A DNA stretch of 64,000 nucleotides from Chitinophagaceae bacterium. GTDB taxonomy: Bacteria; Bacteroidota; Bacteroidia; Chitinophagales; Chitinophagaceae. The notes below the pieces were generated by a model. That model did not search any database. It saw only the letters and a list, made by a program, of their open reading frames with translations, and was not told the DNA's origin. Position 1 is the stretch's first letter, and each line of letters begins with the position of its first letter. This document shows, in pieces, positions 1-49,998 of this stretch. The DNA lies in assembly GCA_036564845.1 (NCBI GenBank), contig DATCOF010000331.1, positions 944 through 64,943 of the forward strand, in the 5' to 3' direction. A program made the translations under genes and the position numbers.

Positions 1-773
1 AAATAATAACTAAAAGCATTAAAGCGTTTGGCTAATTTTTCTCCCTGGTAACGCTGATATGATGAAGTTTTAAAATTTTCTAATTTGTCATTCACTTCTT
101 CACTCTGGCTTGCATTGTAAGTAATATAATTGCGGTAAGAGATCAGCGCAATACTTCTTGCCACTTTCATTCCTCCTATCCCTGCATTTTCATTTTTTTC
201 TTTCCATGTTGCATCACATTCAATGCTTAATCTTTGCGATTCATTAAATGCAATGCCCCATGCTGAATGAACTGCATTAGTTGCAAGCGGAAAAATAAAT
301 TCAAATAATTCAGGTTCTTCAATTGCCCACTCCAATAATTGTTGTCCGCCCATTGAGCCGCCAATGCCAACATGAATTTTTCTAATTCCTAAAAATTCTT
401 TTAGCGGCTGATACGCTTTTATCATATCCCTTACTGTGAAGAAAGGAAAATCATGATAGTATGGAGAATTTGTTTCAGGATCAATATCGAGCGGGCCGAT
501 GCTTCCGTAACAACTGCCGGGCATGTTCACACCAATTATAAAATAATTTGAGGGATCAAATAATTTTCCTTCACCAACTAAACCATGCCACCATTCTGCT
601 GCATCACTATTTGCTGTAAGCGCATGAAACACCCATACAACATTATCTTTTGTTTCATTTAATTCTCCATGTGTGGTATACGCAAGATGTATGTCGGGTA
701 GTACTCTTCCTGACTCCAGCGTAAATGGTTTGCCTGTTGAAAATGTGTTGTAAGCCAAATTTGATTCGTTCAA
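1..773 (-). CDS. metX: Homoserine O-acetyltransferase (alpha/beta hydrolase), 3' end runs off the window
   Basis: Hand translation from TTG at 773 gives ...HLAYTTHGELNETKDNVVWVFHALTANS...GIGGSMGGQQLLEW... (GGSMGG nucleophile elbow). Lies downstream of metY. Absent from the ORF track because there is no stop in the window. Start codon uncertain. Confidence 0.85.
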   Translation of the reverse strand, partial: MNESNLAYNTFSTGKPFTLESGRVLPDIHLAYTTHGELNETKDNVVWVFHALTANSDAAEWWHGLVGEGKLFDPSNYFIIGVNMPGSCYGSIGPLDIDPETNSPYYHDFPFFTVRDMIKAYQPLKEFLGIRKIHVGIGGSMGGQQLLEWAIEEPELFEFIFPLATNAVHSAWGIAFNESQRLSIECDATWKEKNENAGIGGMKVARSIALISYRNYITYNASQSEEVNDKLENFKTSSYQRYQGEKLAKRFNAFSYY

Positions 774-814
774 TATTTTAGAAATAAAAATCTATCGATA
801 TGTTTAAAAAAATT

Positions 815-899: not shown

Positions 900-2234
<1,335 letters not shown>

Positions 2235-2289
2235 TTAAATGATGAGAATTTTTAAGAAAATATAGTAAAGTAATATGTAGATGCGGAAA

Positions 2290-2322
2290 GCCGTAAGGGC
2301 TATAGAATATATGCCTTACGGC
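2290..2322 (-). promoter_or_regulatory. 9-bp hairpin overlapping the stop codon of the Cys/Met leader; putative attenuator or pause element
   Basis: Minus strand reads GCCGTAAGG-N15-CCTTACGGC, followed by TTTCC. Confidence 0.6.
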
Positions 2323-2381
2323 ATAATACAACAACAGATCATGTTGCAGCAAAAGAAAATATGTGTTGATGTTGTTTTCAT
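2316..2381 (-). CDS. Putative Cys/Met-rich leader peptide MKTTSTHIFFCCNMICCCIMP upstream of metY
   Basis: Hand translation gives 21 aa with 5 Cys and 3 Met. It starts just downstream of a TAATTTTG promoter element and ends inside a hairpin. Confidence 0.7.
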   Translation of the reverse strand: MKTTSTHIFFCCNMICCCIMP

Positions 2382-2388
2382 TCCTGTA

Positions 2389-2420
2389 CAAAATTATTAC
2401 TTTTTTGATAAAATGGCTAA
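2389..2420 (-). promoter_or_regulatory. Bacteroidota sigmaA-type promoter for the met leader
   Basis: -7 element TAATTTTG (complement of 2389-2396) and a TTAG -33-like element 20 nt upstream. Confidence 0.6.
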
Positions 2421-2456
2421 AATATTTATGTCCATGACAATCAGCTGTAATTTTTT

Positions 2457-2488
2457 TTTGTTTGAATGGCTATTCATCCTTTACTTTG
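2457..2488 (+). promoter_or_regulatory. Putative promoter for the his leader/operon
   Basis: TTTG (2457-2460), 20-nt spacer, then TTACTTTG (2481-2488), one mismatch to TAnnTTTG. Confidence 0.45.
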
Positions 2489-2496
2489 CATAAACA

Positions 2497-2544
2497 ATGA
2501 AACTATTTATACATATCCATCATCATTCTCTGCCCCTCGGGTAG
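2497..2544 (+). CDS. hisL: His operon leader peptide MKLFIHIHHHSLPLG
   Basis: 15 aa with 4 His codons, 3 of them consecutive. Directly upstream of a terminator and hisG. Confidence 0.78.
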   Translation: MKLFIHIHHHSLPLG

Positions 2545-2576
2545 GCTATGTTGATATATGTGTTAAACATATTCTC

Positions 2577-2607
2577 AAAAGGGCTTACAAAACGTAAGTC
2601 CTTTTTT
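2577..2607 (+). terminator. Attenuator terminator of the his operon
   Basis: AAAAGGGCTTAC-AAAAC-GTAAGTCCTTTTTT: stem-loop with a U-tract, 28 nt before the hisG start. Confidence 0.8.
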
Positions 2608-2635
2608 ATTTTTATGAACTTTTGAAATAATTAGT

Positions 2636-3487
2636 ATGCTAAAAATTGCTATTCAAAAATCGGGAAGGTTGTATGAGGATTCAATAAAACTTTTAAAAGA
2701 ATGTGGCATTGAATTTAATAATGGTAACAAACAATTAAAAGCTGTGGCTTATAATTTTCCTGTAGAAGTTTATTTTTTCAGGGACGATGACATTCCGCAA
2801 TATGTATATGACGGAGTTGCCGATATAGGTTTTGTTGGTGAAAATGTTTTGCTTGAAAAAGAAAAGGATGTTGACCTTGTTTATCGTCTCGGATTTGGAA
2901 GATGCAGACTGAGTATTGCTGTTCCAAAAAGTATGGCATATAATTCGATCAATGATCTTGATGGATTAAAAATTGCAACTTCCTATTCCTCGATTTTACA
3001 AAAATTTCTCTCAGGGAAAAAAGTGAATGCCGAAATTCATGAGATAAGTGGTTCTGTTGAAATAGCGCCTGGCATTGGGTTAGCAGATGCTATCTGTGAT
3101 TTGGTTAGCAGTGGCAGCACACTTTTTACGAATGGATTAAAAGAAGTTGAAGTTATTTTGCGGTCTGAAGCAGTGTTGTGTGCCAATAAAAATTTATCGG
3201 AAGAGAATAAGAATATTTTGGAAAAATTATTGCTTAGAATTAATGCAGTTAAAGCAGCAAAGAATAACAAATACATATTATTGAATGCCCCCAATCATCA
3301 ACTGAAAAATATTGCTGCAGTGCTGCCCGGCATGAAAAGCCCTACTGTAGTGCCTTTGGCGGAAGAAGGTTGGAGTAGTGTGCAGAGTGTAATAAATGAA
3401 AATGTATTTTGGGAGGTAATCGAAAAATTAAAAGCATTGGGGGCAGAAGGGATTTTAGTTGTACCCATTGAAAAGATGATAATGTAA
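2636..3487 (+). CDS. hisG: ATP phosphoribosyltransferase (long form)
   Basis: LKIAIQKSGRL, RDDDIPQYV, GSVEIAPGIGLADAICDLVSSGSTL. Confidence 0.97.
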   Translation: MLKIAIQKSGRLYEDSIKLLKECGIEFNNGNKQLKAVAYNFPVEVYFFRDDDIPQYVYDGVADIGFVGENVLLEKEKDVDLVYRLGFGRCRLSIAVPKSMAYNSINDLDGLKIATSYSSILQKFLSGKKVNAEIHEISGSVEIAPGIGLADAICDLVSSGSTLFTNGLKEVEVILRSEAVLCANKNLSEENKNILEKLLLRINAVKAAKNNKYILLNAPNHQLKNIAAVLPGMKSPTVVPLAEEGWSSVQSVINENVFWEVIEKLKALGAEGILVVPIEKMIM

Positions 3488-9764: not shown

Positions 9765-11063
9765 TTATTTAGCCAATAAGAATTCTTTAAAAGAAGCATA
9801 ATCAACATTCATTTTAATGCTTTTCTTTTTTTCTTTCAACAGATCTTTTATTGCGGAAGGCATAGGAACTGCCTGTTCAATTATAGGTTCTACAACATCA
9901 TAAAATTTTACAGGATGTGCTGTCTCCAAAAATATTCCCTGTAGGTCAGGATGAATTTGTAAATATTTTTTTAGCGCTACATATCCAACAGCACCATGCG
10001 GATCGAGTAAATAATTTTTATTTAGAAAAACATCTTTTAGAACTGATCTCGTTTCTTCATCCGAAATGCTATAGCTCGTCAAAACTTTTTTAAGAGAAAT
10101 AAATTCCCTATTAAAAATTTCGAGAATGCGGATAAAATTACTTGGATCACCAACATCCATTGCATTTGATATTGTTGCAACAGATTTTTTAGTAGTATAC
10201 TTTTCTGTTTGCATGTAACTGGGAACAATATCGTTTGCATTACAAGCTGCAATAAAATGCTGTACCGGCAAGCCAGATCGATGCGCTAATATTCCTGCAC
10301 AAATATTTCCGAAATTGCCGCTGGGCACGCTTATTACGGGAAAGTGATCTTTATCCTTCCATTGTTGATAAGCGAAAAAATAATAGAACTGTTGTGGAAG
10401 CCAGCGTGCAACATTGATAGAATTAGCCGAAGTAAGAAATAATTTTTTATTTATTTCATCATCTGTAAAAGCTTTTTTTACCAGCGCCTGGCAATCATCA
10501 AATGTTCCGTCAACTTCTAATGCAGTTATGTTTTTTTCTAAAGTAGTTAATTGTAATTCCTGAACACTGCTCACTTTTCCTGATGGATACAAGATAACAA
10601 CATCAACTCCTTCCACATCATAAAAACCATTGGCAACAGCCCCGCCTGTGTCACCTGAAGTTGCAACAAGAACAGTTATTTTTTTGTTTTGATCTTTTAC
10701 AAAATAGCCAAGACAACGGCTCATAAATCTTGCGCCAACATCTTTAAATGCAAGCGTGGGACCATGAAATAATTCGAGAGAGAAAATATTTTCTTCAACC
10801 TTAACTAATGGAAATTCAAAATTGATTGTTTCTGCAACAATTCTTTCCAATTCATTTTTTGGAATTACATCGCCTATGTAAGGTTGAATAACTGTGTATG
10901 CAATTTCTTCTTTAGAAAGTTTATCAATATTATTGATAAAAATTTCAGATACCTGCGGAATGCTTTCAGGAAAGTATAATCCTTTGTCCGGCGCCTGTCC
11001 TTTGATGGTCGCTTCTTTAAAGTTTACTATTGGCGAGTTATGATTGGTACTGTGGTAAAGCAT
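9765..11063 (-). CDS. thrC: Threonine synthase
   Basis: ELFHGPTLAFKDVGARF, ATSGDTG, SVPSGNFGN, LETAHPVKF. Confidence 0.97.
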   Translation of the reverse strand: MLYHSTNHNSPIVNFKEATIKGQAPDKGLYFPESIPQVSEIFINNIDKLSKEEIAYTVIQPYIGDVIPKNELERIVAETINFEFPLVKVEENIFSLELFHGPTLAFKDVGARFMSRCLGYFVKDQNKKITVLVATSGDTGGAVANGFYDVEGVDVVILYPSGKVSSVQELQLTTLEKNITALEVDGTFDDCQALVKKAFTDDEINKKLFLTSANSINVARWLPQQFYYFFAYQQWKDKDHFPVISVPSGNFGNICAGILAHRSGLPVQHFIAACNANDIVPSYMQTEKYTTKKSVATISNAMDVGDPSNFIRILEIFNREFISLKKVLTSYSISDEETRSVLKDVFLNKNYLLDPHGAVGYVALKKYLQIHPDLQGIFLETAHPVKFYDVVEPIIEQAVPMPSAIKDLLKEKKKSIKMNVDYASFKEFLLAK

Positions 11064-11091
11064 TGTGATATTTTAATATTTTCTGTCTTTT

Positions 11092-11149
11092 GGTTTGGTG
11101 ATGACACCAACCGCGGAGAGCCGCCGTGACCGGTGTCCCCACCAGTCAC
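11092..11149. repeat. Pair of short REP-like hairpins (GGTG-N4-CACC core) between thrB and thrC
   Basis: ggtttggtg-atga-caccaacc (11092-11112) and gtgaccggtg-tccc-caccagtcac (11126-11149). Confidence 0.6.
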
Positions 11150-11162
11150 TTCTAAGATTGGT

Positions 11163-12089
11163 CTATGATTCTTCTGTAATTGTAATCCCGTGGTTATTTA
11201 TTGTTGTAACATAAGTATGGTAGGCCAATCTCATGCTGTCATAAATTTCTTTCATTATAATTTCTACATCATGGGCAATATTTTCTTGCTTGCATAACAT
11301 AAAAATAGAAGGTCCTGAACCCGCAATGCCACCGCCTAATGCACCTGCTTCCATACATCTTTTCTTTACTTCATCAAAGCCGGGAATTAAAATACTTCTG
11401 ACAGGTTCAATGATCACATCTTCAAGACTGCGACTAATTAATCCATAATCATTCTGCATAAAACCTGTAACCAGTCCTGCAATATTTCCCCATTGTTTAA
11501 TAGCATCTTTCAACAAAACTTCTTTACGAAGGATTTCTCTTGCATCAGAAGTCTTTACTTCTATCTGCGGATGCACAACTGCTACAAACATTGGCGGAGC
11601 ATGCAAAGGAATTATATCCAAAGGAAAAATAGAACGGATAAGTGTTACGCCCCCATAAATACATGGTGAAATATTATCCGCATGTTTTACGCCGGATGCA
11701 AGTTTTTCTCCTGCCATCGCAAAGCGAACAAGGTCTTCTTTAGAAAATTTATTTCCAAGTAAATGATTGGCTGCAACAACAACCCCTGCTGCGCTTGCAG
11801 CGCTGGAGCCAAGGCCACTACCGGGTTTTATATGTTTTTCTATGATGATATCGAAGCCAACCGGAGTATCCAATTCCTGTATTAATTCGAGCAGTGAAAC
11901 GCCTGCAACATTTTTTTCAGGAATTGTGGGGAGATTGTAAATGTCATTGTGCTGAATACGAACACCGGGTTCATCACTAAGTGTGATCTGCATAATATCC
12001 TGCGGATCATTTAATGCCATACCTATCACATCAAAACCACAAACTAAATTGGCAATAGTTGCAGGTGATTTTATTTTTACAGATGTCAT
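11163..12089 (-). CDS. thrB: Homoserine kinase
   Basis: PATIANL, GHMP-kinase motif IKPGSGLGSSAAS, HADNISP, GSGPS. Confidence 0.96.
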   Translation of the reverse strand: MTSVKIKSPATIANLVCGFDVIGMALNDPQDIMQITLSDEPGVRIQHNDIYNLPTIPEKNVAGVSLLELIQELDTPVGFDIIIEKHIKPGSGLGSSAASAAGVVVAANHLLGNKFSKEDLVRFAMAGEKLASGVKHADNISPCIYGGVTLIRSIFPLDIIPLHAPPMFVAVVHPQIEVKTSDAREILRKEVLLKDAIKQWGNIAGLVTGFMQNDYGLISRSLEDVIIEPVRSILIPGFDEVKKRCMEAGALGGGIAGSGPSIFMLCKQENIAHDVEIIMKEIYDSMRLAYHTYVTTINNHGITITEES

Positions 12090-12094
12090 AATAA

Positions 12095-14548
12095 TTAATT
12101 TGAAGGAGCCGCCGCTCTTATGATATCTGCAAAAACACCGGCCGCTGTTACCTCTGCACCTGCACCTGCACCTTTAACTACCAATGGTTGCTCAGCGTAA
12201 CGATTGGTATAAAAAAGCACCGCATTATCTTTTCCGTACAAATGATAAAAATCGTGTTGCGGATCAATATGCTGAAGGCCCACAGAGGCTTTCCCATTCT
12301 CATATTTTGCAACGAACTTTAATTTTTTCTCTACCTTCTTTGCTTCATCAACTAATTTTTTAAAATGGCCTTCATGCTTTTCCATTTCTTTATAAAAATT
12401 TTCAACATCACCTTTCATGCATGCTTCAGGCATAAAAGATTTGTTAGTAATGTCTTCCATTTCTATTTTTTCACCTGTCTCTCTTGCCAATATCATTATT
12501 TTACGCATCACATCTGTTCCACTTAGATCAAGCCTTGGATCAGGTTCCGTGTAACCTTCTTCCTGCGCCTGCCTTACAACACTTGCAAAACTTTTTTCTC
12601 CTGTATAATTATTAAAAACAAAATTAAGTGTGCCGCTTAATACAGCTTCTATGCGGTTTACTTTGTCACCACTTCTCAAAAGATCATTCAATGTTCCTAT
12701 CACCGGTAAACCTGCGCCAACATTTGTTTCAAAAAGAAACAACGCATTAAATTCCCGTGCAAGATCCTTTAGGTTTTTATAATATTCATAAGAAGATGAG
12801 CAGGCGATCTTATTACACGCAACCACTGAAATACTTTTTTCTAAAAAATGAGGATATATTTTTGCTACTTCTGCATTGGCGGTAATGTCGATGAATACTG
12901 AGTTTCGTAAATTCTTTTTTTGAATGACAGAAATAAGATCTTTCATGTTCATCTCATCACCTGTTTGTAAAAGTTCTTTCCATTTTAAAAGATCAATGCC
13001 ATCATCATTGTAAAACATTTTTTTGCTGTTGGCAATTCCTGCAACACGAACCTGCAAACGCAGGTGATCGTGTAAATATTCAATTTGTTGTTGTAATTGT
13101 GCCAGCAGCCTGCTTCCAACGTTTCCTGTACCACTTACAAAAAGATTGACCTGCTTATATGTTGTTTCAAAAAACTCTTCATGCAAAACGTTAATAGCTT
13201 TTTTTACATCCTTTGTTGCTATCACCGCTGAAATATTTTTTTCAGAAGAGCCTTGTGCGATGGCTCTTATGTTAACACCATTCTTTCCCAGAACACTAAA
13301 CATCTTTCCGCTAATGCCCGGATGATTTTTCATGCTATCTCCAACGAGTGCAACAATTGCAAGATCTTTTTCAACTATTAATGGTTCAACTTTTTTTATT
13401 TCTATCTCATAAGCAAATGAGTTGTCAATAGCATCCTTTGCTGCACCAGCATTTATTTCTTCAATACCAACACAAATGGAATGCTCTGAAGAGCTTTGCG
13501 TGATGAGCACAACATTTATTTTTTCATTTGACAATGCTTCAAACAAGCGCTTTGAAAATCCCGGGATGCCCACCATGCCACTGCCTTCAAGGCTTAGTAA
13601 TGCAAGTTTATTAATGCTGGAAATTCCGCGAATGTTTCCGCCATCTTTGGAAGTTGTGTTTTCAATTAATGTTCCTGCATCCTGCGGAGCAAAAGTATTT
13701 TTTATCCAAACCGGAATACGTTTGTTCATCACCGGTTGTATGGTAGGCGGATAAATTACTTTAGCACCGAAGTGAGAAAGTTCCATCGCTTCCTGGTAAG
13801 AAATTTTTTCTATGATCTTTGCATTGCTTACCAGCCGTGGATCTGCGGTCATCATTCCTGAAACATCAGTCCATATTTCAACAGCTGACGCATTTAACGC
13901 TGCAGCAATAATTGCTGCGGTATAATCGGAGCCGCCTCTTCCCAATGTAGTAGTGTTTCCATTTTTATCTGATGAAATAAAACCGGGAATAACACAAACA
14001 AGACTTTGTAAGGGAAAAAAGAAAGACTGAATGTTTTTATTCGTAGTTGTAAAATCAACATTTGCTGAACCGAATTGCGAATCGGTAATGATAAGTTCTC
14101 TTGCATCTTTCCATGTACTGTCTATGTCAAGTGATCTTAACTTGTCTGCAAATATTTGAGAAGATAATAATTCGCCATTACTTATGATAGAATCTTTTGT
14201 TCGCTGTGATAATTCTTTTAATAAGTAAACACCGTTGCAGGTGTCTTCAATATTATTAAAGGTTTTTTTTACCATGCTAAGCACACTGCTTTGCTGATCG
14301 ATAGGGATCAGTTCCTTTACAGTTGTAAGATGCCTCTGCTCTATGTTGTGGAGTTTCTCTTTATAAAATATATCTGTATTGGAAGCAAGTTCTGCAACTT
14401 CTAATAACGCATCAGTAACGCCGCCTAATGCGGATAGAATAATAATGATGTTATTATTCTTTTTTGTTGACTGCTGAACAATTGCAATTACTTCATTTAT
14501 ATTTTTTGCATTGGCAACAGAACTGCCCCCAAATTTTAAAACCTGCAT
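12095..14548 (-). CDS. thrA: Bifunctional aspartokinase / homoserine dehydrogenase I
   Basis: VLKFGGSSV, LGRGGSDYTA, two ACT domains, FETNVGAGLPVI, GYTEPDPRLDLSG. Confidence 0.97.
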   Translation of the reverse strand: MQVLKFGGSSVANAKNINEVIAIVQQSTKKNNNIIIILSALGGVTDALLEVAELASNTDIFYKEKLHNIEQRHLTTVKELIPIDQQSSVLSMVKKTFNNIEDTCNGVYLLKELSQRTKDSIISNGELLSSQIFADKLRSLDIDSTWKDARELIITDSQFGSANVDFTTTNKNIQSFFFPLQSLVCVIPGFISSDKNGNTTTLGRGGSDYTAAIIAAALNASAVEIWTDVSGMMTADPRLVSNAKIIEKISYQEAMELSHFGAKVIYPPTIQPVMNKRIPVWIKNTFAPQDAGTLIENTTSKDGGNIRGISSINKLALLSLEGSGMVGIPGFSKRLFEALSNEKINVVLITQSSSEHSICVGIEEINAGAAKDAIDNSFAYEIEIKKVEPLIVEKDLAIVALVGDSMKNHPGISGKMFSVLGKNGVNIRAIAQGSSEKNISAVIATKDVKKAINVLHEEFFETTYKQVNLFVSGTGNVGSRLLAQLQQQIEYLHDHLRLQVRVAGIANSKKMFYNDDGIDLLKWKELLQTGDEMNMKDLISVIQKKNLRNSVFIDITANAEVAKIYPHFLEKSISVVACNKIACSSSYEYYKNLKDLAREFNALFLFETNVGAGLPVIGTLNDLLRSGDKVNRIEAVLSGTLNFVFNNYTGEKSFASVVRQAQEEGYTEPDPRLDLSGTDVMRKIMILARETGEKIEMEDITNKSFMPEACMKGDVENFYKEMEKHEGHFKKLVDEAKKVEKKLKFVAKYENGKASVGLQHIDPQHDFYHLYGKDNAVLFYTNRYAEQPLVVKGAGAGAEVTAAGVFADIIRAAAPSN

Positions 14549-14635
14549 ATATAGTTATAGTGTTTATTAATAAAATTAAGAGATATGTTTTGTTCGAGAT
14601 AATTCCTTTGAGGGGTAGCTATATGTGAGGCTTGA

Positions 14636-15892
14636 TTAAACCAGGTAACCAAAGGCATTATCATCTTGTTTCAGTTCAGTGTAATTTACTTGATATGCAT
14701 CCAGGTTATTTAATAACCTGTAGTAATCTTCTCTTGATCTTAATTCGATTCCCACTAATGCAGGGCCGGATTCTTTATTATGTTTTTGAACATACTCAAA
14801 CCTTGTGATATCATCCGAAGGCCCCAGTACCTGATTAACAAATTCCTTTAAAGCTCCAGGCCTTTGTGCAAACCGGATGAGAAAATAATGTTTTAATCCT
14901 TCGTATTGCAGGGAGCGTTCTTTTATTTCCTGCATCCTGTCAATATCATTATTGCTTCCGCTTACAATGCAAACAACATTCTTACCTTTTATTTCATTTG
15001 CATAATCATCTAATGCGGTAATTGATAAAACGCCTGCGGGTTCTACTACCATTGCGTCTTCGTTATATAATTTCAGGATCGTTGTACAAACTTTTCCTTC
15101 CGGCACCAAATGCATATCTGATAAAACTTCTTTACAAATTGAAAAAGTTATGTTGCCCACACGCTTTACAGAAGCACCATCTACAAATTGCTCAATATTA
15201 TCGAGCGTAACCGGCTGACCGGCTTCCAGGGCAGCTTTCATTGAAGGAGCACCTTCGGGTTCAACACCAATTATTTTTGTTTGAGGAGAAAAAGTTTTAA
15301 AATAACTGCCAACTCCGGAACACAAACCACCGCCACCTACAGGAACAAATAAATAATCTATTGCTGACAGGTCTTCCAGAATTTCAAGACCAACTGTGCC
15401 CTGCCCTTCAATGATCTTATAATCATCAAAAGGATGGACATAGGTCATTTGATTTTCTTCAGTGTATTGTTTTGCTGCAACCGCACATTCATCGTATGAA
15501 TCACCGATCAATTTTATTTCTACGAAATCTTCGCCAAACATTTTTGTCTGACTGATTTTTTGATTGGATGTAATAACAGGCATAAACACCACACCTTTTA
15601 CACCCAGTTTTTTACATGAATATGCAAAGCCCTGTGCATGATTTCCGGCGCTGGCACATACAACTCCTTTTTGCAATTGCTCCTTCGATAAACTGCTCAT
15701 CATGTTATATGCACCACGAATTTTATAAGAGCGAACCACCTGCAGATCTTCTCTTTTCAAATAAATATTTGCCTGGTATTTTTTTGAAAGATTATGATTG
15801 AGAACAAGTGGCGTTCTGTAAATGACATTTTTTAGCCGGTTTGCTGCTGCATTAAAATCAAGCATCGGAATTGTATGTGCGGATGTATTCAT
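14636..15892 (-). CDS. ilvA: Threonine dehydratase (biosynthetic, short form)
   Basis: LKREDLQVVRSYKIRGA, ASAGNHAQG, VPVGGGGL. Confidence 0.96.
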   Translation of the reverse strand: MNTSAHTIPMLDFNAAANRLKNVIYRTPLVLNHNLSKKYQANIYLKREDLQVVRSYKIRGAYNMMSSLSKEQLQKGVVCASAGNHAQGFAYSCKKLGVKGVVFMPVITSNQKISQTKMFGEDFVEIKLIGDSYDECAVAAKQYTEENQMTYVHPFDDYKIIEGQGTVGLEILEDLSAIDYLFVPVGGGGLCSGVGSYFKTFSPQTKIIGVEPEGAPSMKAALEAGQPVTLDNIEQFVDGASVKRVGNITFSICKEVLSDMHLVPEGKVCTTILKLYNEDAMVVEPAGVLSITALDDYANEIKGKNVVCIVSGSNNDIDRMQEIKERSLQYEGLKHYFLIRFAQRPGALKEFVNQVLGPSDDITRFEYVQKHNKESGPALVGIELRSREDYYRLLNNLDAYQVNYTELKQDDNAFGYLV

Positions 15893-15903
15893 TAGTCTTG
15901 TAA

Positions 15904-17007
15904 TTATTTGACAGCTTCTTTTACATTCTTGTCTTTAAGCTGCGGAGAATCTTCAACAGGCTTTTGGTTTTCGGGACGTAAACTTCTTACCGTCTTTCCT
16001 GTCTGCCACAATTCACTGTCACGCAATTCTTTTAGTTCCACTTCCAGTTTTTCCCTGTAATCCGCTTTGCTGTTGCTTTCTATTGAACGTGTTGCTTCTC
16101 TGCCTGCAGCAACTTCAGCATATAATTCTTTAAACACCGGCGATGTTGCATCACGGAATTTTTTCCACCAATCCAAAGCACCACGCTGTGCTGTAGTTGA
16201 ACAATTTGCATACATCCAATCCATACCATTCTCTGCAACCAATGGCATTAATGATTGTGTAAGTTCTTCAACAGTTTCATTAAATGCTTCGGAAGGAGAG
16301 TGGCCATTTGCTCTCAACACATCATATTGTGCTGCAAATATTCCCTGTATCGCACCCATAAGTGTTCCTCTTTCTCCGGTGAGATCTGAGTAAACTTCTT
16401 TCTTGAAATTTGTTTCAAATAAATATCCTGAACCAATTGCAATGCCTAATGCAGCAACTCTTTCAAAAGCTCTTCCTGTTGCATCCTGGAAGATCGCATA
16501 ACTACTATTCAATCCACGTCCCTGCAAAAACATTCTGCGTAAAGATGTTCCTGAACCTTTTGGTGCTACTAAAAAAACGTCAACATCTTTTGGTGGAATA
16601 ATGCCTGTTTGATCATTATAGGTTATGCCAAAGCCATGAGAAAAATATAAGGCTTTGCCCGGTGTTAAATGTTTTTTTACCGTTGGCCACATTGCAATTT
16701 GTGCAGCATCACTAAGTAAATAACAAATGATGGTTCCTTTCTCCAAAGCTTCTTCAATTTCAAAAAGTGTTTTGCCTTCTACAAAACCATCACGTACGGC
16801 TTTGTCCCAGCTTTTTGAATTTTTTCTCTGCCCTACAATTACATTTATGCCGTTTTCTTTTTGATTTAGCGCCTGTCCCGGTCCCTGAACACCGTAGCCA
16901 ATAACCGCTACCACTTCATCTTTCAGTACTTCCTGTGCTTTTGATAATGGGAATTCTTCACGGGTTACCACATTCTCCTGTGTGCCGCCAAAATTTAATG
17001 TTGCCAT
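15904..17007 (-). CDS. ilvC: Ketol-acid reductoisomerase
   Basis: IGYGVQGPGQALN, VAPKGSG, SDLTGERGTLMG. Confidence 0.96.
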   Translation of the reverse strand: MATLNFGGTQENVVTREEFPLSKAQEVLKDEVVAVIGYGVQGPGQALNQKENGINVIVGQRKNSKSWDKAVRDGFVEGKTLFEIEEALEKGTIICYLLSDAAQIAMWPTVKKHLTPGKALYFSHGFGITYNDQTGIIPPKDVDVFLVAPKGSGTSLRRMFLQGRGLNSSYAIFQDATGRAFERVAALGIAIGSGYLFETNFKKEVYSDLTGERGTLMGAIQGIFAAQYDVLRANGHSPSEAFNETVEELTQSLMPLVAENGMDWMYANCSTTAQRGALDWWKKFRDATSPVFKELYAEVAAGREATRSIESNSKADYREKLEVELKELRDSELWQTGKTVRSLRPENQKPVEDSPQLKDKNVKEAVK

Positions 17008-17047
17008 TGTATTAGTTTTTAGTTTGTTATTTATGAGATGTTATTAA

Positions 17048-17638
17048 TTACATTGTAAATACTTCGTCCTGCTTATCAAGAAATTCATTCTCCACCAATT
17101 CATCACCCGGTCCGGCATTTTCGTATTCTTTTAATTTTTCGTGAAAGCCGCTGCTGGCTTTTATTACAGCTACTCTTGCGCTTCGCACAAATTCTATCAA
17201 TCCATAAGGCTCTAAAAATTTTACAAGACGATCAGTTTCTTCTCTATGCCCGGTGGTTTCAAAAATGGTATAGTCTTTACGAATTGTTACTGCACGTGCG
17301 CCATATTCCCTTAGCAATCTTTCTACTTTTATTTTTTCAGCGATCTCATCTGTAGGCACTTTATACAGCGCCATTTCCTGCCAAACAATTTCATCTTCGG
17401 TATTATAAAATGCTTTTAAAACATCTACCTGTTTTTCAATTTGCCGGCAAAGTTTGCGCACCACATCTTCTGTTTCATTTATCACAATTGTGAATCGGTG
17501 TACACTATCTACTTCAGTGGGAGATGTATTTAAACTGTCCACATTAATTTTTCTGCGTGAAAAAATAATTGCGATACGGTTCAATAATCCAACCTGGTTT
17601 TCAGTATAAACGGTGATCGTATATTCCAGTTTACTCAT
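17048..17638 (-). CDS. ilvN: Acetolactate synthase small (regulatory) subunit
   Basis: ACT domain ENQVGLLNRIAIIFSRRKINVDSL; GLIEFVRSARVA. Confidence 0.93.
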   Translation of the reverse strand: MSKLEYTITVYTENQVGLLNRIAIIFSRRKINVDSLNTSPTEVDSVHRFTIVINETEDVVRKLCRQIEKQVDVLKAFYNTEDEIVWQEMALYKVPTDEIAEKIKVERLLREYGARAVTIRKDYTIFETTGHREETDRLVKFLEPYGLIEFVRSARVAVIKASSGFHEKLKEYENAGPGDELVENEFLDKQDEVFTM

Positions 17639-17643
17639 AAAAA

Positions 17644-19410
17644 TTATTTAAGTCTTATTTCCGAAACACTGCATCCCTGCGGCACCATAGGGAATACATT
17701 ATTTTCTTTTCCTACCATCACTTCCAATAAATAAGGGCCGTTGTGATCCAACATTTCTTTCAATGCATTCTTCAAATTTTCTCTCTCTGAAACTTTTTGT
17801 CCTGAGATATTATATGCTTTTGCAAGTGCAACAAAATCCGGGCTCTGAATGTCAGTGAATGAATATCTTCTTTCAAGAAACAGCTCCTGCCACTGGCGAA
17901 CCATTCCGAGAAACTGGTTATTGAGAATTATTATTTTTACATCAATATTATTTTGCATGATAGTTCCCATTTCCTGTAATGTCATTTGAAAACCACCATC
18001 ACCAATCACGGCGATAACAGTTCTTTCAGGTGCGCCAAATTTTGCACCGATCACAGCAGGTAAAGCAAAACCCATTGTTCCTAATCCCCCTGATGTAACA
18101 TTGCTTTTTGATTGATTGAATTTTGCATAACGGCAAGCTACCATCTGGTGCTGGCCAACATCTGTTACAATGATCGCATCGCCGCCTGTTAATTCATTTA
18201 GCAGGTTGATAACTTCACCCATTGTCAGGATTTCTGTATCAGGGTGTAACTCAGGCTGGATGCAGGTTTCCTCTTCCTGTTTTTTATGCTCACTAAATTT
18301 TTGTAACCATTGCGGATGCACTTTTTGTTCTACGAGTTCAGTAAGCAACGGCAATGTTTCTTTACAATCACCCCAAACAGAAACAGTTGTTTTTACATTC
18401 TTATCAATTTCCGAAGGGTCAATGTCAAGATGAATAACTTTTGCCTGCTTTGCATATTTATCTAACCGCCCGGTAACACGATCATCGAAACGCATACCGA
18501 TCGCGATCAACACATCACATTCATTCGTTAAAACATTTGGCCCATAATTACCATGCATGCCAAGCATACCAACTCCCAATGGATGATCAGTTGGAATAGC
18601 GCTCATACCCATGATTGTCCATGCTGCAGGGATGCCGGCCTTCTCAATAAATTGTTTGAATTCTTTTTCTGCTTCGCCTAGAATAATGCCCTGGCCAAAG
18701 ATCACAAATGGTTTTTCTGCAGTATTGATAAGCTTTGCAGCTTCTTCAATATATTTTTTTCTAATGATCGGTTTAGGGCGATAGCTGCGAATGTGATCAC
18801 ATTTTTTATAACCTTCATAATTAAACTTTTGTAACTGTGCATTCTTAGTTATGTCAATCAAAACAGGCCCGGGCCTGCCGCTACCGGCGATATAAAATGC
18901 TTTTGCAAGAACAGAAGGTATTTCTGTTGCATCAGTGATCTGGTAATTCCATTTGGTAACAGGCGTTGTAATATTAATAACATCCGTTTCCTGGAAAGCA
19001 TCTGTTCCTAACAAATGAGCAAACACTTGTCCGGTGATGCACACTAATGGAGTACTATCTATCATGGCATCAGCCAAACCTGTCACAAGATTTGTAGCGC
19101 CGGGGCCACTGGTAGCAATCACAACTCCTGTTTTTCCTGAAGCTCTTGCAAACCCTTGTGCAGCGTGGATTGCGCCCTGCTCATGGCGAACAAGAATATG
19201 ATTCAGTCTGTCATGATAATCATACAATGCATCATAGATCGGCATGATCGCTCCGCCGGGATAGCCAAAGATCACGTCAACATCTTCTGCAAGAAATGCC
19301 TGTAACACTGCCTGTGAGCCACTCAATTCAATCACCTCCGAATTCTGTAAAGGAAACTCAGCAGTTGCTTCTTCTTTTTTCGACGTTGGTATATTTTGTA
19401 CTAAAGGCAT
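17644..19410 (-). CDS. ilvB: Acetolactate synthase large subunit
   Basis: FGYPGGAIMP, RHEQGA, TSGPGATN, ThDP motif GDGGFQMT...NN, GMVRQWQ. Confidence 0.96.
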   Translation of the reverse strand: MPLVQNIPTSKKEEATAEFPLQNSEVIELSGSQAVLQAFLAEDVDVIFGYPGGAIMPIYDALYDYHDRLNHILVRHEQGAIHAAQGFARASGKTGVVIATSGPGATNLVTGLADAMIDSTPLVCITGQVFAHLLGTDAFQETDVINITTPVTKWNYQITDATEIPSVLAKAFYIAGSGRPGPVLIDITKNAQLQKFNYEGYKKCDHIRSYRPKPIIRKKYIEEAAKLINTAEKPFVIFGQGIILGEAEKEFKQFIEKAGIPAAWTIMGMSAIPTDHPLGVGMLGMHGNYGPNVLTNECDVLIAIGMRFDDRVTGRLDKYAKQAKVIHLDIDPSEIDKNVKTTVSVWGDCKETLPLLTELVEQKVHPQWLQKFSEHKKQEEETCIQPELHPDTEILTMGEVINLLNELTGGDAIIVTDVGQHQMVACRYAKFNQSKSNVTSGGLGTMGFALPAVIGAKFGAPERTVIAVIGDGGFQMTLQEMGTIMQNNIDVKIIILNNQFLGMVRQWQELFLERRYSFTDIQSPDFVALAKAYNISGQKVSERENLKNALKEMLDHNGPYLLEVMVGKENNVFPMVPQGCSVSEIRLK

Positions 19411-19428
19411 AGAAATATTTTTATTTTT

Positions 19429-21147
19429 TTAAAATACCCTGTTATGTTTTACATCATGAAATTTTGGCGCTTCATCTGTTACACATCCTTCGGCTGCATT
19501 GGTAACACAAGTTGCATATTTAAACAGAACTCCTTTTGTTGCTTTTAGTGCAGGTTGCTGCCAATCCTTTTTTCTTTCCTGTATCTCTTCATCATCAATT
19601 TTTAATGTCATCGTATGATCCACTGCATCCAGTTCAATGATGTCATTATCTTTTACAAATGCTATCAATCCACCGTCATATGCTTCAGGTGTAATATGCC
19701 CTACAACAAAGCCATGTGTGCCGCCGCTGAATCTTCCATCAGTTATCAATGCGACTGATTTCCCCAGGCCTGCACCGATTATCGCTGATGTAGGTTTCAG
19801 CATCTCAGGCATACCCGGACCACCTTTTGGCCCAACGTATCTTATAACAACAACATCGCCTTCTTTAATTTTTCCTGAATTAATTCCTTCGATTAATTCA
19901 AACTCTCCATCAAAAACTCTTGCAAGCCCTGTAAATTTTTCGCCTTCTTTACCTGAGATCTTTGCAACACTTCCGCCTTCTGCGAGATTGCCATATAATA
20001 TTTGTAAGTGACCTGTTTGTTTAATTGGTTTTTCAACAGGGAAAATAATTTTTTGTGCATCAAAATTTAATTCAGGAACATCTTTTAAATTTTCTTCGAT
20101 TGTTTTTCCTGTAACAGTGAGACAATCGCCATGCAATAAATTTTGTTGCAATAAATATTTCATCACAGCAGGTACACCGCCAATGTTATGCAGGTCTTCC
20201 ATCAAATATTTCCCGCTTGGTTTTAAGTCTGCTAAAACAGGAGTTTTATCACTGATAATTTGGAAATCATCCTGGGTTAAAACGACAGCTACACTTTTCG
20301 CCATTGCGATCAAATGCAATACTGCATTGGTGCTGCCGCCCAAAGCCATTATCACGGTCACGGCATTTTCAAATGCTTTTCTTGTCATGATGTGAGAAGG
20401 CTTTATATCTTTTTCTATAAGCAAACGAATAGCTTTTCCTGCAGCGTGGCATTCATTTTTTTTCTCCTCACTGAGAGCAGGATTTGATGATGAATAAGGC
20501 AGGCTCATGCCCAGTGCTTCAATAGCACTTGACATTGTATTTGCTGTGTACATGCCGCCACATGCACCTGCGCCGGGACATGAATGCTTTATAATTTCTT
20601 TAAAATCTTCGGGAGAAATTTCACCTTTTATTTTTTTGCCTAATGCCTCAAAGGCAGAAACAATATTTAGATCTTCCCCTTTATAATGACCCGGGTGAAT
20701 AGATCCGCCATACACCATTATCGACGGACGGTTTAATCTTCCCATTGCCATAATTGAGCCCGGCATATTTTTATCACAACCCGGAACCGCGATCAATGCA
20801 TCATAATATTGTGCACCGCAAACTGCTTCAATTGAATCGGCAATTATATCGCGGCTTACCAACGAATAACGCATTCCGTCTGTACCATTGCTGATGCCAT
20901 CACTCACACCAATTGTATTAAAGATCAAACCAACAAGATTATTATCCCACACTCCCTGTTTTACAAGTTTTGCTAATTCATTCAAATGCATGTTGCAGGT
21001 ATTGCCTTCGTAGCCCATGCTCACGATACCTACCTGTGCTTTTGTAAGATCATCTTCAGTTAACCCAATGCCGTACAGCATTGCCTGTGCTGCAGGTTGT
21101 GTAACATCCTGCGTAATTACTTTGCTGTATTTGTTTAGTTCGTTCAT
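19429..21147 (-). CDS. ilvD: Dihydroxy-acid dehydratase
   Basis: [42 protein letters not shown]. Confidence 0.97.
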
Positions 21148-22052
21148 GCGCTTTCTAATTCTCTTTTAATTTCTTTTGTATATTCTTTGTCAATTACTTT
21201 GTGCATGTATGCTTCCTGGATAATTTTTCCGGCAGTTTCATTCCATGGTTTAGGAAACTTTGTATCATCAAGGCTTTCCCATCCTATCACTTCTGCGGCA
21301 GTACCACAAAAGAAGGCAGCATCTGCATCTTTCAATTCATCTATCGTGAATTGTTTTTCTTCTACAGGTATTTGCAATTCACTGCATATTTCAAAAACGG
21401 TTGCTCTTGTAATTCCCGGTAAAATATTTCCTAATGATGGTGTAAATAATTTTCCATCTTTCTCAAAAAAAACATTTGCTCCAGGGCCTTCTGCAACAAA
21501 ATCATCCATGTCTAATAACAATGCTTCATCAAAGCCATTTGCTTTTGCTTCCTGGCTTGCAAGAATTGAATTTACATAATGGCCGGCTGCCTTTGCCTCT
21601 ATTTTAAAACCTTTAGGGTTGGGGCGTTGAAATGATGATGTCATAACCCGCAATAATTTATCTCCTAAAAATGGTTGCATCTGCCAACCTTGAATAACAA
21701 TAAATGATTTTTTGTTTTTTATAAAACTCATATTGGCCGGCGCATACACAACAGGGCGTATGTACGCATCCTGTAAATTATTTCTTTTTAAAACTTCATA
21801 CGTGGCATCTATCAATCCTTCTGAAGTCCAGTGGTAGGGCATATTTAAAGCATCTGCAGAATTCTTTAATCTTTCAAAATGTTCTAACGCTTTAAATATT
21901 TTTGTTTCGTTGTTCACAGTTTTATAAGAACGGATGCCTTCAAAAACAGAATAGCCATAATGAAGACTCTGGCTATAGAGATCCATTTTTGCATCTACTG
22001 CTTTTACGAATTCTCCGTTTAAATAAAGTATTGTGTTTTCATTATAATACAT
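21144..22052 (-). CDS. ilvE: Branched-chain amino acid aminotransferase
   Basis: [42 protein letters not shown]. Confidence 0.96.
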
Positions 22053-22054
22053 AA

Positions 22055-23170
22055 CTAAATAATAGTTGATTTTCTTAATTCAATATTTTTTTTATTAAAT
22101 GTTCCCGGAATTCTTCCATTCACATAATCAATTATCAGGTCGCCGATAGTTGACATGAAATAAAAATTTATGGGATCAATATCTTTTGTGACCATTCCAT
22201 TATTTATTGTCCATTCTACTGCTTTCCTTACCAAGTCTGCTTCTTCATGTAAATTAAAATGATCGAGCATCATTGCTGCTGATAAAATTGAGCCTAATGG
22301 ATTGGCAATGTCTTTACCTGCAGCCTGCGGATAAGAACCATGGATCGGTTCAAACAATGCTGATGAATTTCCGATAGAAGCTGATGGCAATAATCCTAAA
22401 GAGCCACTGATAACACTTGCTTCATCACTTAAAATATCTCCAAACATATTTTCAGTTAGCATAACATCAAACTGTTTTGGATTAACAATTATCTGCATGG
22501 CAGCATTGTCAACAAACATATAATCAACGGTAATATCTGCGTACGAAGGCGCAATTTCCTGAACCGTTTTTCTCCATAGCCTTGATGTTTCCAAAACGTT
22601 TGCTTTGTCAACAAGCGTTAATTTTTTTCTTCTTGTTTGCGCAGCCTTAAATGCTAAGTGTGTGATGCGTTCTATTTCTGTTTTGTTGTAAGTGCAGAGG
22701 TCAGATGCTTCGGTAAGATCTTCGCTCAATTCTTTTTTACCAAAATAAATCCCTCCTGTCAGTTCCCGGTAAATTACAAAATCAACTTCTTCAAGTTGCT
22801 TGCTTTTTAAAGGAGACAAGTGTTGCAAAGAAGGATAAGTTGTAACAGGACGAATGTTTGCAAACAGTTGCAGCGTTTTTCTTATTTTAAGCAAACCCTG
22901 TTCAGGCCTTACTTTCGCGGTAGGGTCGTTATCATATTTTGGATGACCGATAGCGCCAAACAAAATGGCATCGCTGTTTAAACAAACTTCTATAGTTTCA
23001 TTGGGAAGAGGGTTTCCGGTTTTGTCAATTGCATCAGCGCCCATTAAACAGTAAGTGTAATTAAACTCGTGGTCGAACCTTTCTGCTACGGCGTTCAATA
23101 TTTTTACTGATTGTTGTGTTACTTCCGGACCAATTCCGTCTCCCGGTATTACTGCAATATTTTTGACCAT
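22055..23170 (-). CDS. leuB: 3-isopropylmalate dehydrogenase
   Basis: GDGIGPEV, RELTGGIYFG, DKANVL, NMFGDILSD, EPIHGSYP. Confidence 0.97.
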   Translation of the reverse strand: MVKNIAVIPGDGIGPEVTQQSVKILNAVAERFDHEFNYTYCLMGADAIDKTGNPLPNETIEVCLNSDAILFGAIGHPKYDNDPTAKVRPEQGLLKIRKTLQLFANIRPVTTYPSLQHLSPLKSKQLEEVDFVIYRELTGGIYFGKKELSEDLTEASDLCTYNKTEIERITHLAFKAAQTRRKKLTLVDKANVLETSRLWRKTVQEIAPSYADITVDYMFVDNAAMQIIVNPKQFDVMLTENMFGDILSDEASVISGSLGLLPSASIGNSSALFEPIHGSYPQAAGKDIANPLGSILSAAMMLDHFNLHEEADLVRKAVEWTINNGMVTKDIDPINFYFMSTIGDLIIDYVNGRIPGTFNKKNIELRKSTII

Positions 23171-23202
23171 TGATTTGAATGATTTGAATGATTAAAATGA
23201 TT
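23171..23202. repeat. Tandem 9-mers tgatt(tg/aa)aa between leuD and leuB
   Basis: tgatttgaa tgatttgaa tgattaaaa tgatt; the last unit overlaps the leuD stop. Confidence 0.55.
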
Positions 23203-23785
23203 CTGCTTTTTGTTTTTCAAAATTTATTATTTCTTCTTCAATGCTTACTAAATAATCAATATCATCATAGCCGTTTAGCAGGCAATTTTTTTTGTAGCTG
23301 TTGATCTCAAATGTTTCTTCTTCCCCTGTGCTGTCAATTATTATTTTTTGACTTTCCAGATCTACAGTTAATGCTGAATGATTATCCTGCTTAAATATTT
23401 TTTGTAAAAATTCATCGCTTACCTGCACCGGTATAACACCATTGTTTAAAGAATTTCCTTTAAAGATGTCTGCAAAAAAGCTGGAGACAACTACAGTAAA
23501 TCCGGCATCAAGTAAAGCCCATGCTGCGTGTTCACGTGAAGAACCACAACCAAAATTTTTTCCTGCCACCAAAATTTTTCCTTCGTATTCAGGCTGGTTC
23601 AACACAAAATCTTTTTTAGGATTTGTTTCATCGTTATCAAGGTAACGCCAGTCGCGAAAAAGATTTTTTCCAAAACCTTCACGGGTGGTGGCTTTTAAAA
23701 AGCGTGCTGGAATTATTTGATCCGTATCAACGTTCTCCAATGGTAAGGGAACAAACCTGCTATGTATAATTTTTACTGATTCCAT
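23192..23785 (-). CDS. leuD: 3-isopropylmalate dehydratase small subunit
   Basis: [24 protein letters not shown]. Confidence 0.97.
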
Positions 23786-23788
23786 TTT

Positions 23789-25261: not shown

Positions 25262-25282
25262 TTTTATAAATTTTATTAATTA

Positions 25283-25317
25283 TTTACATCATACATCACA
25301 CCTCGTATATCACACAT
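25283..25317. repeat. Five degenerate heptamers between leuA and leuC
   Basis: tttacat catacat cacacct cgtatat cacacat. Confidence 0.6.
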
Positions 25318-25320
25318 TGG

Positions 25321-26493: not shown

Positions 26494-26617
26494 TGTGCTA
26501 TGATTTTATGCGGAATTATCAGTATTAAAATAATATTCCGGATCTCAGAATAGAGGCTTTTATAAAAATAGGTTCTATGTAAAAGAATGTCTAATTAATA
26601 TATAGTCATCTTTACAC

Positions 26618-49988: not shown

Positions 49989-49998
49989 CTAAAAAATT

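Follow-up and report, generated by a model that had tools for sequence, protein, structure and literature searches.

Control by leader peptides is regarded as a proteobacterial and actinobacterial device, and translation in Bacteroidota proceeds without Shine-Dalgarno-led initiation. Here, we analyze a short Cys-rich open reading frame (ORF) upstream of metY-metX in a 64,000-nt stretch of DNA from a Chitinophagaceae bacterium (GenBank assembly GCA_036564845.1, contig DATCOF010000331.1, positions 944 to 64,943 of the forward strand). This whole stretch is called the window, and coordinates refer to it unless another locus is named. The ORF had been proposed as a candidate leader peptide by an earlier reading of the DNA (the original prediction). 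It is very probably a translated regulatory leader that reads the decoding of Cys codons, its translation being predicted rather than observed. Its closest known relatives in function appear to be the poly-Cys leaderless short ORFs (sORFs) of mycobacteria (Ms5788A, the "Cys ribulon"), in which starvation turns genes on (Canestrari et al., bioRxiv 10.1101/834739); Cys leaders had been predicted earlier in Actinobacteria (Seliverstov et al., 2005, PMC1262725). The mycobacterial sORFs and the metY leader are both very short ORFs located right at the transcript 5′ end or close to it, with a Cys run by the stop codon and no terminator/antiterminator pair. In both, a pyrimidine-rich stretch precedes the first sulfur amino-acid gene and pausing at Cys codons is the proposed signal. 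Unlike the mycobacterial sORFs, to which it has no sequence relationship, the metY leader occurs in another phylum and targets metY-metX-hom instead of cys genes. It further differs in having a hairpin at the stop codon, a Cys run that pairs back onto the 5′ portion of the same ORF and, often, a SAM-I riboswitch in tandem.

Classical attenuators (trpL, hisL, leuL, thrL; in Rfam, Bacteroid-trp RF01692) likewise place a short ORF, in which codons of a single amino acid cluster, upstream of an amino-acid biosynthesis operon. Unlike these, the metY leader has no antiterminator and, in the window, no canonical U-tract terminator, and its codons abut or enter a hairpin at the 3′ end of the ORF. Moreover, they are Cys codons (with one or two Met), yet the operon makes homocysteine and methionine. 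In E. coli pyrBI and pyrE, a ribosome close behind the polymerase prevents formation of the terminator hairpin and a lagging one allows it. This is the closest mechanical analog of the model favored below, which would share the principle that the 5′ arm of a terminator lies within reach of the leader ribosome. At pyrBI/pyrE the variable is polymerase speed (UTP-dependent pausing) and the leader ORF passes through the terminator, whereas the metY leader would depend on how fast the ribosome moves through the Cys codons, and its ORF ends inside the hairpin. The uORFC-8-2 element upstream of cysS in Rhodobacterales carries tandem Cys codons in a stem and is a proposed ribosome-mediated attenuator (Brewer et al., 2021, PMC8632094). 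Its two Cys codons lie in the first of two stems, it has a clear U-tract terminator and a synthetase gene as target, and it is unrelated to the metY leader in sequence and architecture. Finally, SAM-I (RF00162) occupies the same slot upstream of metY in sister genomes, but is a metabolite-binding RNA without an ORF; wherever both occur, the metY leader is downstream of the aptamer. In the full-text literature, Cys-codon leaders turned up only in Actinobacteria and Rhodobacterales and none for Bacteroidota or metY, though such a leader could be published elsewhere. Rfam contains no family for the metY poly-Cys leader. Applied to these leaders, Rfam 15 yields matches to the SAM-I model only, plus a sub-threshold match of the Bacteroidete Trp-leader to the His leader described below.

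In the window, the metY leader lies on the minus strand inside a 413-nt intergenic region separating two divergent operons. A promoter-like −7 box (TAATTTTG / UAAUUUUG; 2389..2396, minus strand) stands in front of the leader ATG with a 7-nt gap (UACAGGA). The Bacteroidota −7 promoter consensus is TAnnTTTG, which the box fits; at the usual spacing between box and transcription start, a gap of 7 nt implies a predicted 5′ untranslated region (UTR) of ~0–3 nt. According to sequence and translation, the leader ORF MKTTSTHIFFCCNMICCCIMP (2316..2381, minus strand) has 21 codons plus UAA, and its RNA reads AUG AAA ACA ACA UCA ACA CAU AUU UUC UUU UGC UGC AAC AUG AUC UGU UGU UGU AUU AUG CCG UAA. The stop codon (2318..2316) is followed by GGCAUAUAUUCUAUAGCCCUUACGGC and then UUUCC. 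Codons 11 and 12 (2351..2346) and 16, 17, and 18 (2336..2328) specify Cys, in a CC + CCC pattern; runs of at least two consecutive Cys codons near the ORF end, which were looked for, are thus present as CC 11–12 and CCC 16–18. The internal Met codons are 14 (2342..2340) and 20 (2324..2322). When the intergenic region is shuffled by dinucleotides, 0.76% of the shuffles contain an ATG-to-stop ORF with five or more Cys in no more than 45 codons. The evidence from the window by itself is modest, and the significance of the leader stems from its conservation across relatives, not from window statistics.

Downstream of the leader, a G-poor, pyrimidine/A-rich untranslated spacer of 67 nt (A23 C13 G1 U30; 2223..2289, minus strand) extends to the metY AUG. 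The gene metY encodes an O-acetylhomoserine sulfhydrylase of 440 amino acids (900..2222, minus strand; TIGR01326, E 5e-204, 677 bits against a cutoff of 495). The gene metX, for homoserine O-acetyltransferase, was recognized from its translation (1..791, minus strand), its frame being open to the window edge and its start codon unassigned. In the related locus L009, the metX ortholog matches TIGR01392/NF001209 and is followed by a homoserine dehydrogenase gene, so that the operon there is metY-metX-hom. The promoter box, the Cys-rich ORF, a 9-bp hairpin with a UUUCC tail, and the G-poor spacer, all named in the original prediction, are present on the minus strand. That no SAM-I signature had been seen was likewise borne out: an Rfam scan of the 64-kb window at the gathering threshold returned tRNAs only and no SAM riboswitch, and an Rfam search of 2200..2640 at E ≤ 10 gave nothing credible, SAM-I included. 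Membership of the window leader in the SAM-I family was rejected, as it has no RF00162 match, though the same search detects the riboswitch in 62 related loci.

Two mutually exclusive hairpins share the end of the window ORF. The first, P1 (UAUGCC-GUAA-GGCAUA; 2310..2325, minus strand; 6 bp, −7.4 kcal/mol), has the stop codon in its loop, is followed by UAUUCUAUAG, and was flagged as terminator-like. The second, T (2290..2322, minus strand), has 9 bp, a 15-nt loop, and a stability of −15.5 kcal/mol; its 5′ arm GCCGUAAGG (2322..2314) pairs with the 3′ arm CCUUACGGC (2298..2290), and the tail is UUUCCGCAUC (UUUCC, 2289..2285). The 5′ arm of P1 spans codons 19–21, and that of T consists of the last base of codon 20, Pro21, the stop codon, and GG. 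Since a perfect stem of at least 9 bp occurs in 10.8% of dinucleotide shuffles of the intergenic region, T by itself is not significant. A third, local hairpin (2327..2351, minus strand; −6.3 kcal/mol) joins the two Cys clusters by pairing Cys11-Cys12-Asn13 (UGCUGCAACA) with Cys16–18 (UGUUGUUGUA). Its pairing core is GCAACA:UGUUGU, and it represents the window version of a helix of the family, P0. An alternative partner is ACAACAUCAACA at 2375..2364. P1, the Cys-cluster hairpin, and the divergent His leader were missing from the original prediction.

The occurrence of the leader was followed in two sets of relatives. A MetY-based scan with one genome per species gave 80 loci, mostly from Chitinophagaceae and some from Cytophagales (Chryseolinea, Ohtaekwangia). 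Metagenome contigs were scanned with the most conserved 20-mer, TGYTGYATGCCGTAAGGCAT, which gave 108 stretches. An ATG-started ORF with a dense Cys cluster ends 58–160 nt before metY in ~47 of the 80 genome loci, and three further loci (L010, L048, and L026) have leaders with fewer Cys. The leader ORF is carried by ~104 of the 108 metagenome matches, the other four being chance matches in unrelated G+C-rich DNA. Where enough downstream sequence is available, the next gene on the metagenome contigs is metY, except for two contigs with metX. In both sets, the leader was found solely ahead of metY/metX and never elsewhere, and its stop codon lies at a narrow distance from metY in the relatives, mostly 81–118 nt. 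The family is large and sharply delimited: Chitinophagaceae of soil, freshwater, and wastewater contribute >100 different sequences, and a divergent form is present in Cytophagales. That a conserved Cys leader ORF is tied to metY-metX, as the original prediction implied, is therefore strongly supported by the genome and metagenome loci. In two metagenome loci (L157, L163), metY is deleted to a 19-codon 5′ stub, and an intact leader with P1 and a second hairpin, P2, stands directly before metX.

The ORF itself shows a pattern expected of a translated frame. Of 102 unique sequences, 98 have an in-frame ATG and at least 10 open codons in the Cys frame, against 6 and 22 in the other frames. The ORF has 17–32 codons (median 25) with 2–8 Cys (median 5), which occupy positions −9 to −3 from the stop codon and are mostly followed by Met at −2 and Pro at −1, i.e., Cys-Met-Pro-stop. 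The N-terminal two-thirds of the peptide are free to vary, and the start codon, the frame, the length, and the Cys window are retained. An exact TAnnTTTG lies 4–30 nt before the in-frame ATG in 49 of the 102 unique relatives, with gaps of 7–20 nt. The claim that the ORF is nearly leaderless holds for the window subfamily, where the gap between box and ATG is 7–9 nt and the transcripts would be effectively leaderless. It does not extend to most other relatives, with gaps of 11–20 nt, nor to the Cytophagales, where the ORF lies behind a SAM-I aptamer.

The conserved core of the RNA is P1, with the motif (U)GUAUGCC-GUAA-GGCAUAC encoding Cys-Met-Pro-stop, which is near invariant in Chitinophagaceae leaders. 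Its pairing is preserved by compensatory double changes, namely AUGUC/GACAU in L036, AUGU/ACAU in L072 and L018, and AUGUG/CGCAU in L023, from Terrimonas sp. R1. Depending on the lineage, the P1 loop carries UAA, UGA, or UAG; in L012, L059, and L061 the loop is without a stop codon and the peptide is 4–5 codons longer. In the covariation analysis of P1, 89% of cells are paired and three pairs are changed on both sides; only 2 of 500 shuffles attain the covariation score, and slid controls collapse. Because the P1 stem covaries, the conserved Met-Pro ending is largely an RNA constraint. Hence, sensing of Met, which the original prediction had added to that of Cys, is not demonstrated. The same prediction had treated the 9-bp hairpin T as the key element, a role that passes to P1 as the hairpin conserved in the family. 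T is confined to a small subfamily (the window, L010, L114, L121, L143, L048, and L002), which has no P2. There, the T pairing is the same and the loops are quite different, and the segment involved is complementary to GCCGUAAGG(C). A run of U5–7 directly follows P1 in the window relatives L010, L114, L143, and L048.

Upstream of P1, the helix P0 pairs the 5′ part of the ORF with the Cys run. Across the family its energy is −13.15 kcal/mol compared to −9.75 kcal/mol for shuffled sequences (p = 4e-13), and ACA/AAC/CAA codons (Thr, Asn, Gln, His) abound in this 5′ part. In most members, a second small hairpin, P2, begins 10–14 nt past P1; its sequence is highly variable and about half of the cases have a U-rich tail. 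RNAalifold on MAFFT alignments of the post-stop region recovered only P1 in Chitinophagaceae and two hairpins, H1 and H2, in Cytophagales, P2 being too variable to align. Many majority-type leaders (e.g., L084, L090, L097, L160) also have a conserved tail, YUUUAUUGCC(N)GCCAUU plus a U run, ~45–60 nt past the stop codon and behind P2. The tail after P2 resembles the 5′ arm of P1 with one additional U; a search for a segment with which it pairs significantly gave none. A variant in L029, L033, L077, and L026 ends in RRCCC followed by IL, VL, or KD and the stop codon, or in RRCCTSY and the stop codon, and is without the P1 motif. In this variant, two Arg codons make the 5′ arm of the hairpin, whose inner stem and loop contain the Cys codons plus the stop.

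The Cytophagales form is a ~45-codon ORF that starts with an ATG ~10 nt past a SAM-I aptamer and ends in CMCCCC..CCC (e.g., CMCCCCACCC). This arrangement, including the hairpins behind the ORF, lies at 2622–2947 in L050, from Chryseolinea serpens DSM 24574, and recurs in L049, L053, L058, L060, L063, L064, L068, L073, L076, L079, and L080. This ORF looks as if it crosses the putative terminator hairpin of the riboswitch, and the N-terminal peptide conservation SGSSVQRLRAYF coincides with that hairpin. In H1, the last Cys codons pair with the downstream CAGCAACAC. H2 (L050:2904–2947), which follows H1, is conserved, has CCARGUGACAGG as its near-invariant loop, and is without a U tract; a comparison of H2 with Rfam matched no family. 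The common denominator of all forms appears to be a Cys run at the end of a short ORF, together with a predicted hairpin whose 5′ strand consists of the last codons and whose 3′ strand lies past the stop codon.

SAM-I (RF00162) was found by Rfam search within 3 kb upstream of metY in 62 of the 80 genome loci and is absent from the window. In 12 loci, SAM-I is near metY without a leader. In 13 loci, all Cytophagales, SAM-I is followed by the leader on what is probably a single transcript, with the aptamer ending 233–301 nt before metY. In 19 loci, from Chitinophagaceae, SAM-I has its own strong terminator, and ~190 nt plus a promoter-like box separate it from the leader. In seven loci, a gene of the cystathionine gamma-lyase/synthase family lies between SAM-I and the leader, and 11 loci, the window included, have the leader only. 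Because these arrangements alternate, the leader fills the regulatory slot of a feedback riboswitch or adjoins one. In L039 (1266–2773) and L023 (1268–2780), as in L018, L035, L036, and L047, SAM-I controls the cystathionine gamma-lyase/synthase-family gene that precedes the leader and metY-metX-hom. Clusters of the L039/L023 type would thus have two different RNA regulators in series along one sulfur-metabolism cluster. Three loci (L003, L005, L006) combine SAM-I with an apparently decayed leader ~260 nt upstream of metY that has no Cys cluster; the remnants are a promoter-like box and CCCC..GG..UAUUG(A/G)CC, and in L006 a CM codon pair.

How could such a leader act? We predicted structures for the window and 34 relatives in which 28 nt were kept unpaired to mimic a ribosome at the first, middle, or last Cys codon, the Met codon, or the stop codon. 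An antiterminator was sought in these constrained folds and none was found. On these grounds a classical attenuator of the trp/his type was rejected, its codons also not being cognate to the operon product; because there is no antiterminator, the element is not a textbook attenuator. This agrees with the non-classical anatomy of the original prediction, as in the folds the stop codon is overlain by the hairpins, which would be hidden by a ribosome at the ORF end. In the window, T forms with the A site at Cys11, Cys12, or Cys16 and is lost only at Cys18 or the stop codon. In the majority type, the probability of P2 is identical in every ribosome state. A long-range helix that would close the structure by joining the mRNA 5′ end to the conserved UAUUGCC tail after P2 is no better than in shuffled or permuted sequences. 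Because no upstream segment pairs with the hairpin arms, only the ribosome can block P1 and T.

As in a pyrBI-type device, the 5′ arm of T (and of P1) lies inside the footprint of a ribosome that ends the leader ORF. The ribosome footprint reaches ~12 nt beyond the A site, and the distance from the P site to the active site of the polymerase is at least ~34 nt. With the polymerase 7–9 nt beyond T, a coupled ribosome would have its A site on Pro21 or the stop codon, and the 5′ arm of T would be hidden. With the polymerase just beyond P1, a coupled ribosome would be within the Cys run, its leading edge over the 5′ arm of P1. Because a ribosome in replete cells cannot have left yet at this point, P1 and T would be able to signal that the ribosome is late or absent, not that a replete state means termination. 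A ribosome-speed version of the pyrBI principle follows, in which Cys shortage would therefore lower read-through.

We thus favor an occlusion model. Transcription would begin a few nucleotides ahead of the leader ATG, and a pioneer ribosome would read the 21-codon ORF as the polymerase still makes the leader. The pace of this ribosome across the Cys (possibly also the Met) codons would be set by charged tRNA-Cys and would determine whether it covers the last codons once P1 or T has just emerged. A ribosome that is on pace would mask the 5′ arms of P1 and T, so that the polymerase continues into metY-metX(-hom). A ribosome stuck at Cys11, 12, 16, or 17, or an absent one, would leave the arms free, and P1 or T would form and cause a pause or a stop. 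The stop might be effected by a weak intrinsic terminator or by Rho, aided by the G-poor spacer. We infer the translation of the ORF, the sensing of tRNA charging, and the termination output. To occlusion with this reverse direction we assign a probability of roughly 0.4, the direction being its weakest step. In physiological terms, metY-metX would be expressed only with charged Cys-tRNA, i.e., when sulfur is sufficient, as a feed-forward gate beside the feedback by SAM-I. Such a sulfur-sufficiency gate, by which a shortage of Cys (sulfide) would turn off the sulfide-consuming homocysteine pathway, is a tentative proposal that we hold with considerable doubt. One point in favor of the reverse logic is that, in tandem with SAM-I, it yields a sensible gate for low product and available sulfur. 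Two devices in series that are each turned on by starvation would block methionine synthesis whenever cysteine is plentiful.

Several observations weigh against this model. The tail of T is only UUUCC and that of P1 only UAUUCUAUAG, whereas the terminators of the His leader and of SAM-I have long U tracts, and in most family members and in Cytophagales the hairpins are without U tracts. P1 and T are therefore poor terminators for this lineage, and the output may instead be a pause, Rho-dependent termination on the spacer, or post-transcriptional; the spacer, C-rich and G-poor with 13 C and one G in 67 nt, is compatible with Rho without being diagnostic. To our knowledge, every characterized amino-acid-codon leader turns its genes on under starvation, and the reverse is without precedent. 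A ribosome stalled at Cys positions −5 to −3, which are about half of the total, would sit on P1 and thereby mimic an on-time ribosome. Under the reverse logic, the conserved Met codon in the cluster would lead to harmful positive feedback. Close relatives have swapped SAM-I-only and leader-only arrangements, which suggests that both do a similar job, namely end-product repression. On the side of expression, the RNA runs searched for the window sequence do not contain it, and it is present in DNA runs, from soil metagenomes and from genome runs of one organism. Metatranscriptome contigs of relatives from wastewater and soil span the leader into metY (record 15 of X46 also includes the upstream gene); they are consistent with co-transcription of leader and metY, though DNA carry-over is possible. 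The ends of these contigs are set by k-mer overlaps and hence hold no information on transcript 5′ or 3′ ends.

A leader that works in the classical direction is a serious competitor that we nevertheless consider somewhat improbable. Starvation for Cys or Met would stall the ribosome on the last codons, so that P1 or T is held open or the mRNA is stabilized, and metY-metX would go up. In replete cells, the ribosome would finish and depart, the hairpins would close, and expression would fall, the output being perhaps termination or pausing at a later step, Rho loading on the spacer, or a post-transcriptional event. All known codon-run leaders act in this way, including the mycobacterial poly-Cys leaderless sORFs, which share with the metY leader the Cys run by the stop codon, the leaderless transcript, and the lack of an obvious terminator. 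Cys at −5 to −3 and Met at −2 place a stalled ribosome over the 5′ arm of P1, and in L010, L114, L121, and L143 the Cys codons directly abut Met-Pro-stop. Yet no RNA relay was found that leads from an open P1 to a downstream decision, as P2 forms in every state. Nor does the metY start respond: with the Cys run blocked, its predicted accessibility goes from 0.55 to just 0.57, and loci with a leader show no better pairing of Cys run and metY start than leaderless loci do. The interchange of leader-only, SAM-I-only, and tandem layouts among close relatives fits the classical direction, and only here is the conserved Met in the Cys cluster physiologically sensible. On the other hand, a coupled ribosome in replete cells hides T as well as a stalled one does, so that T cannot mean that a replete state stops transcription, and four of the five window Cys codons, when occupied, leave T free. 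In the tandem with SAM-I, finally, expression would need low S-adenosylmethionine plus low Cys/Met-tRNA.

A second alternative, which we judge quite unlikely, is that translation is attenuated as in mycobacteria: the UGU/UGC run would pair with the metY start region AUGAGCAACAA, and a stalled ribosome would free it. Experimental precedent exists in Ms5788A. A helix between the Cys tract and the metY start appears in the minimum-energy fold of the full-length window leader, as it does in that of L114, and the window duplex has −11.0 kcal/mol. In addition, metY starts complement Cys runs above shuffles (−8.84 vs. −7.76 kcal/mol, p = 5e-5). The value for a leader's own metY (−8.84 kcal/mol), however, compares with −9.45 kcal/mol for metY of leaderless loci. 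As the complementarity is no better for the own metY, it reflects the conserved Met-Ser-Asn-Asn codons. The competing partner within the ORF, P0, is stronger (−13.15 kcal/mol), and blocking the Cys run raises start accessibility by >0.15 in only 5 of 107 sequences. A duplex between the Cys tract and the ribosome-binding site was therefore rejected as a feature of the family, given that the own metY is no better than the leaderless ones and accessibility is nearly unchanged, although the predicted helix leaves some probability for it in the window leader itself.

Least likely of all is the absence of any sensing of tRNA charge, with the ORF encoding a functional Cys-rich micropeptide (e.g., a metal or sulfur carrier) or lying incidentally in a structured 5′ region: ORF translation is a prediction, the C-terminal Cys-Met-Pro is conserved, and P0, P1, and P2 could act as RNA without translation, but the N-terminal two-thirds vary while start codon, length, and frame persist, Met-Pro is explained by the P1 stem and changes along with it, and the element is restricted to metY/metX and occupies the slot of a riboswitch. 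A Pro codon before the stop is slow to terminate. In comparison with TnaC-like arrest, the Cys-Met-Pro-stop of the leader is conserved, but the same nucleotides make the P1 stem and the rest of the peptide is variable.

The other side of the intergenic region holds a second leader. The hisG-hisD operon begins at 2636 on the plus strand, divergent from metY, with hisG at 2636..3487; hisD comes next, and further ORFs agree in size with hisC, hisB, hisH, and hisA. A classical His leader, MKLFIHIHHHSLPLG followed by a stop codon (2497..2544, plus strand), lies in the same intergenic region as the metY leader, 120 nt from it. Its terminator, a 12-pair hairpin with the tail TTATTTTTAT (2577..2605, plus strand), lies ~30 nt ahead of hisG. 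No Rfam family matched the His leader above threshold, the sole match being a weak one to Bacteroid-trp (E 6.5). With its canonical terminator, the His leader indicates that the window organism uses attenuation, which counts in favor of the occlusion model.

Elsewhere in the 64-kb window no further poly-Cys leaders were found, another frame with five Cys occurring only within the region of large, rpoB-size ORFs. A long one-strand series of ORFs (9765..26493, minus strand) has sizes that suggest leu/ilv/thr biosynthesis, and the first resembles 2-isopropylmalate synthase. A Leu-rich leader was looked for in the 190 nt (26494..26682) ahead of this leuA-like gene at 26.5 kb, and none was obvious. 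Five tRNA genes with an EF-Tu-size ORF (395 amino acids) between the fourth and the fifth are located on the plus strand (49915..51804 and 50389..59828). Smaller ORFs and an rpoB-size ORF (1269 amino acids), judged by size, come after the tRNA cluster, an ordinary conserved neighborhood.

Taken together, the stop-codon hairpin, the absence of an antiterminator, and the alternation or fusion with a riboswitch are the distinctive traits of the metY leader. It would add a regulator in a phylum with few known ones, and all members of the family would control the step at which sulfide enters methionine synthesis. For annotation, it matters that the leader ORFs are unannotated and that the stretch is otherwise taken for an ordinary promoter region. 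With no antiterminator, the family is a natural model in which to study how the position of the ribosome by itself is sensed. Its alternation and fusion with SAM-I offer a tractable case of regulatory replacement and of the integration of two signals in one leader. If the reverse logic were true, repression in response to starvation would be seen for the first time in an amino-acid-codon leader. SAM-I plus leader would then compute "product low AND substrate available" and would be the first natural two-input gate made of a riboswitch and a leader peptide.

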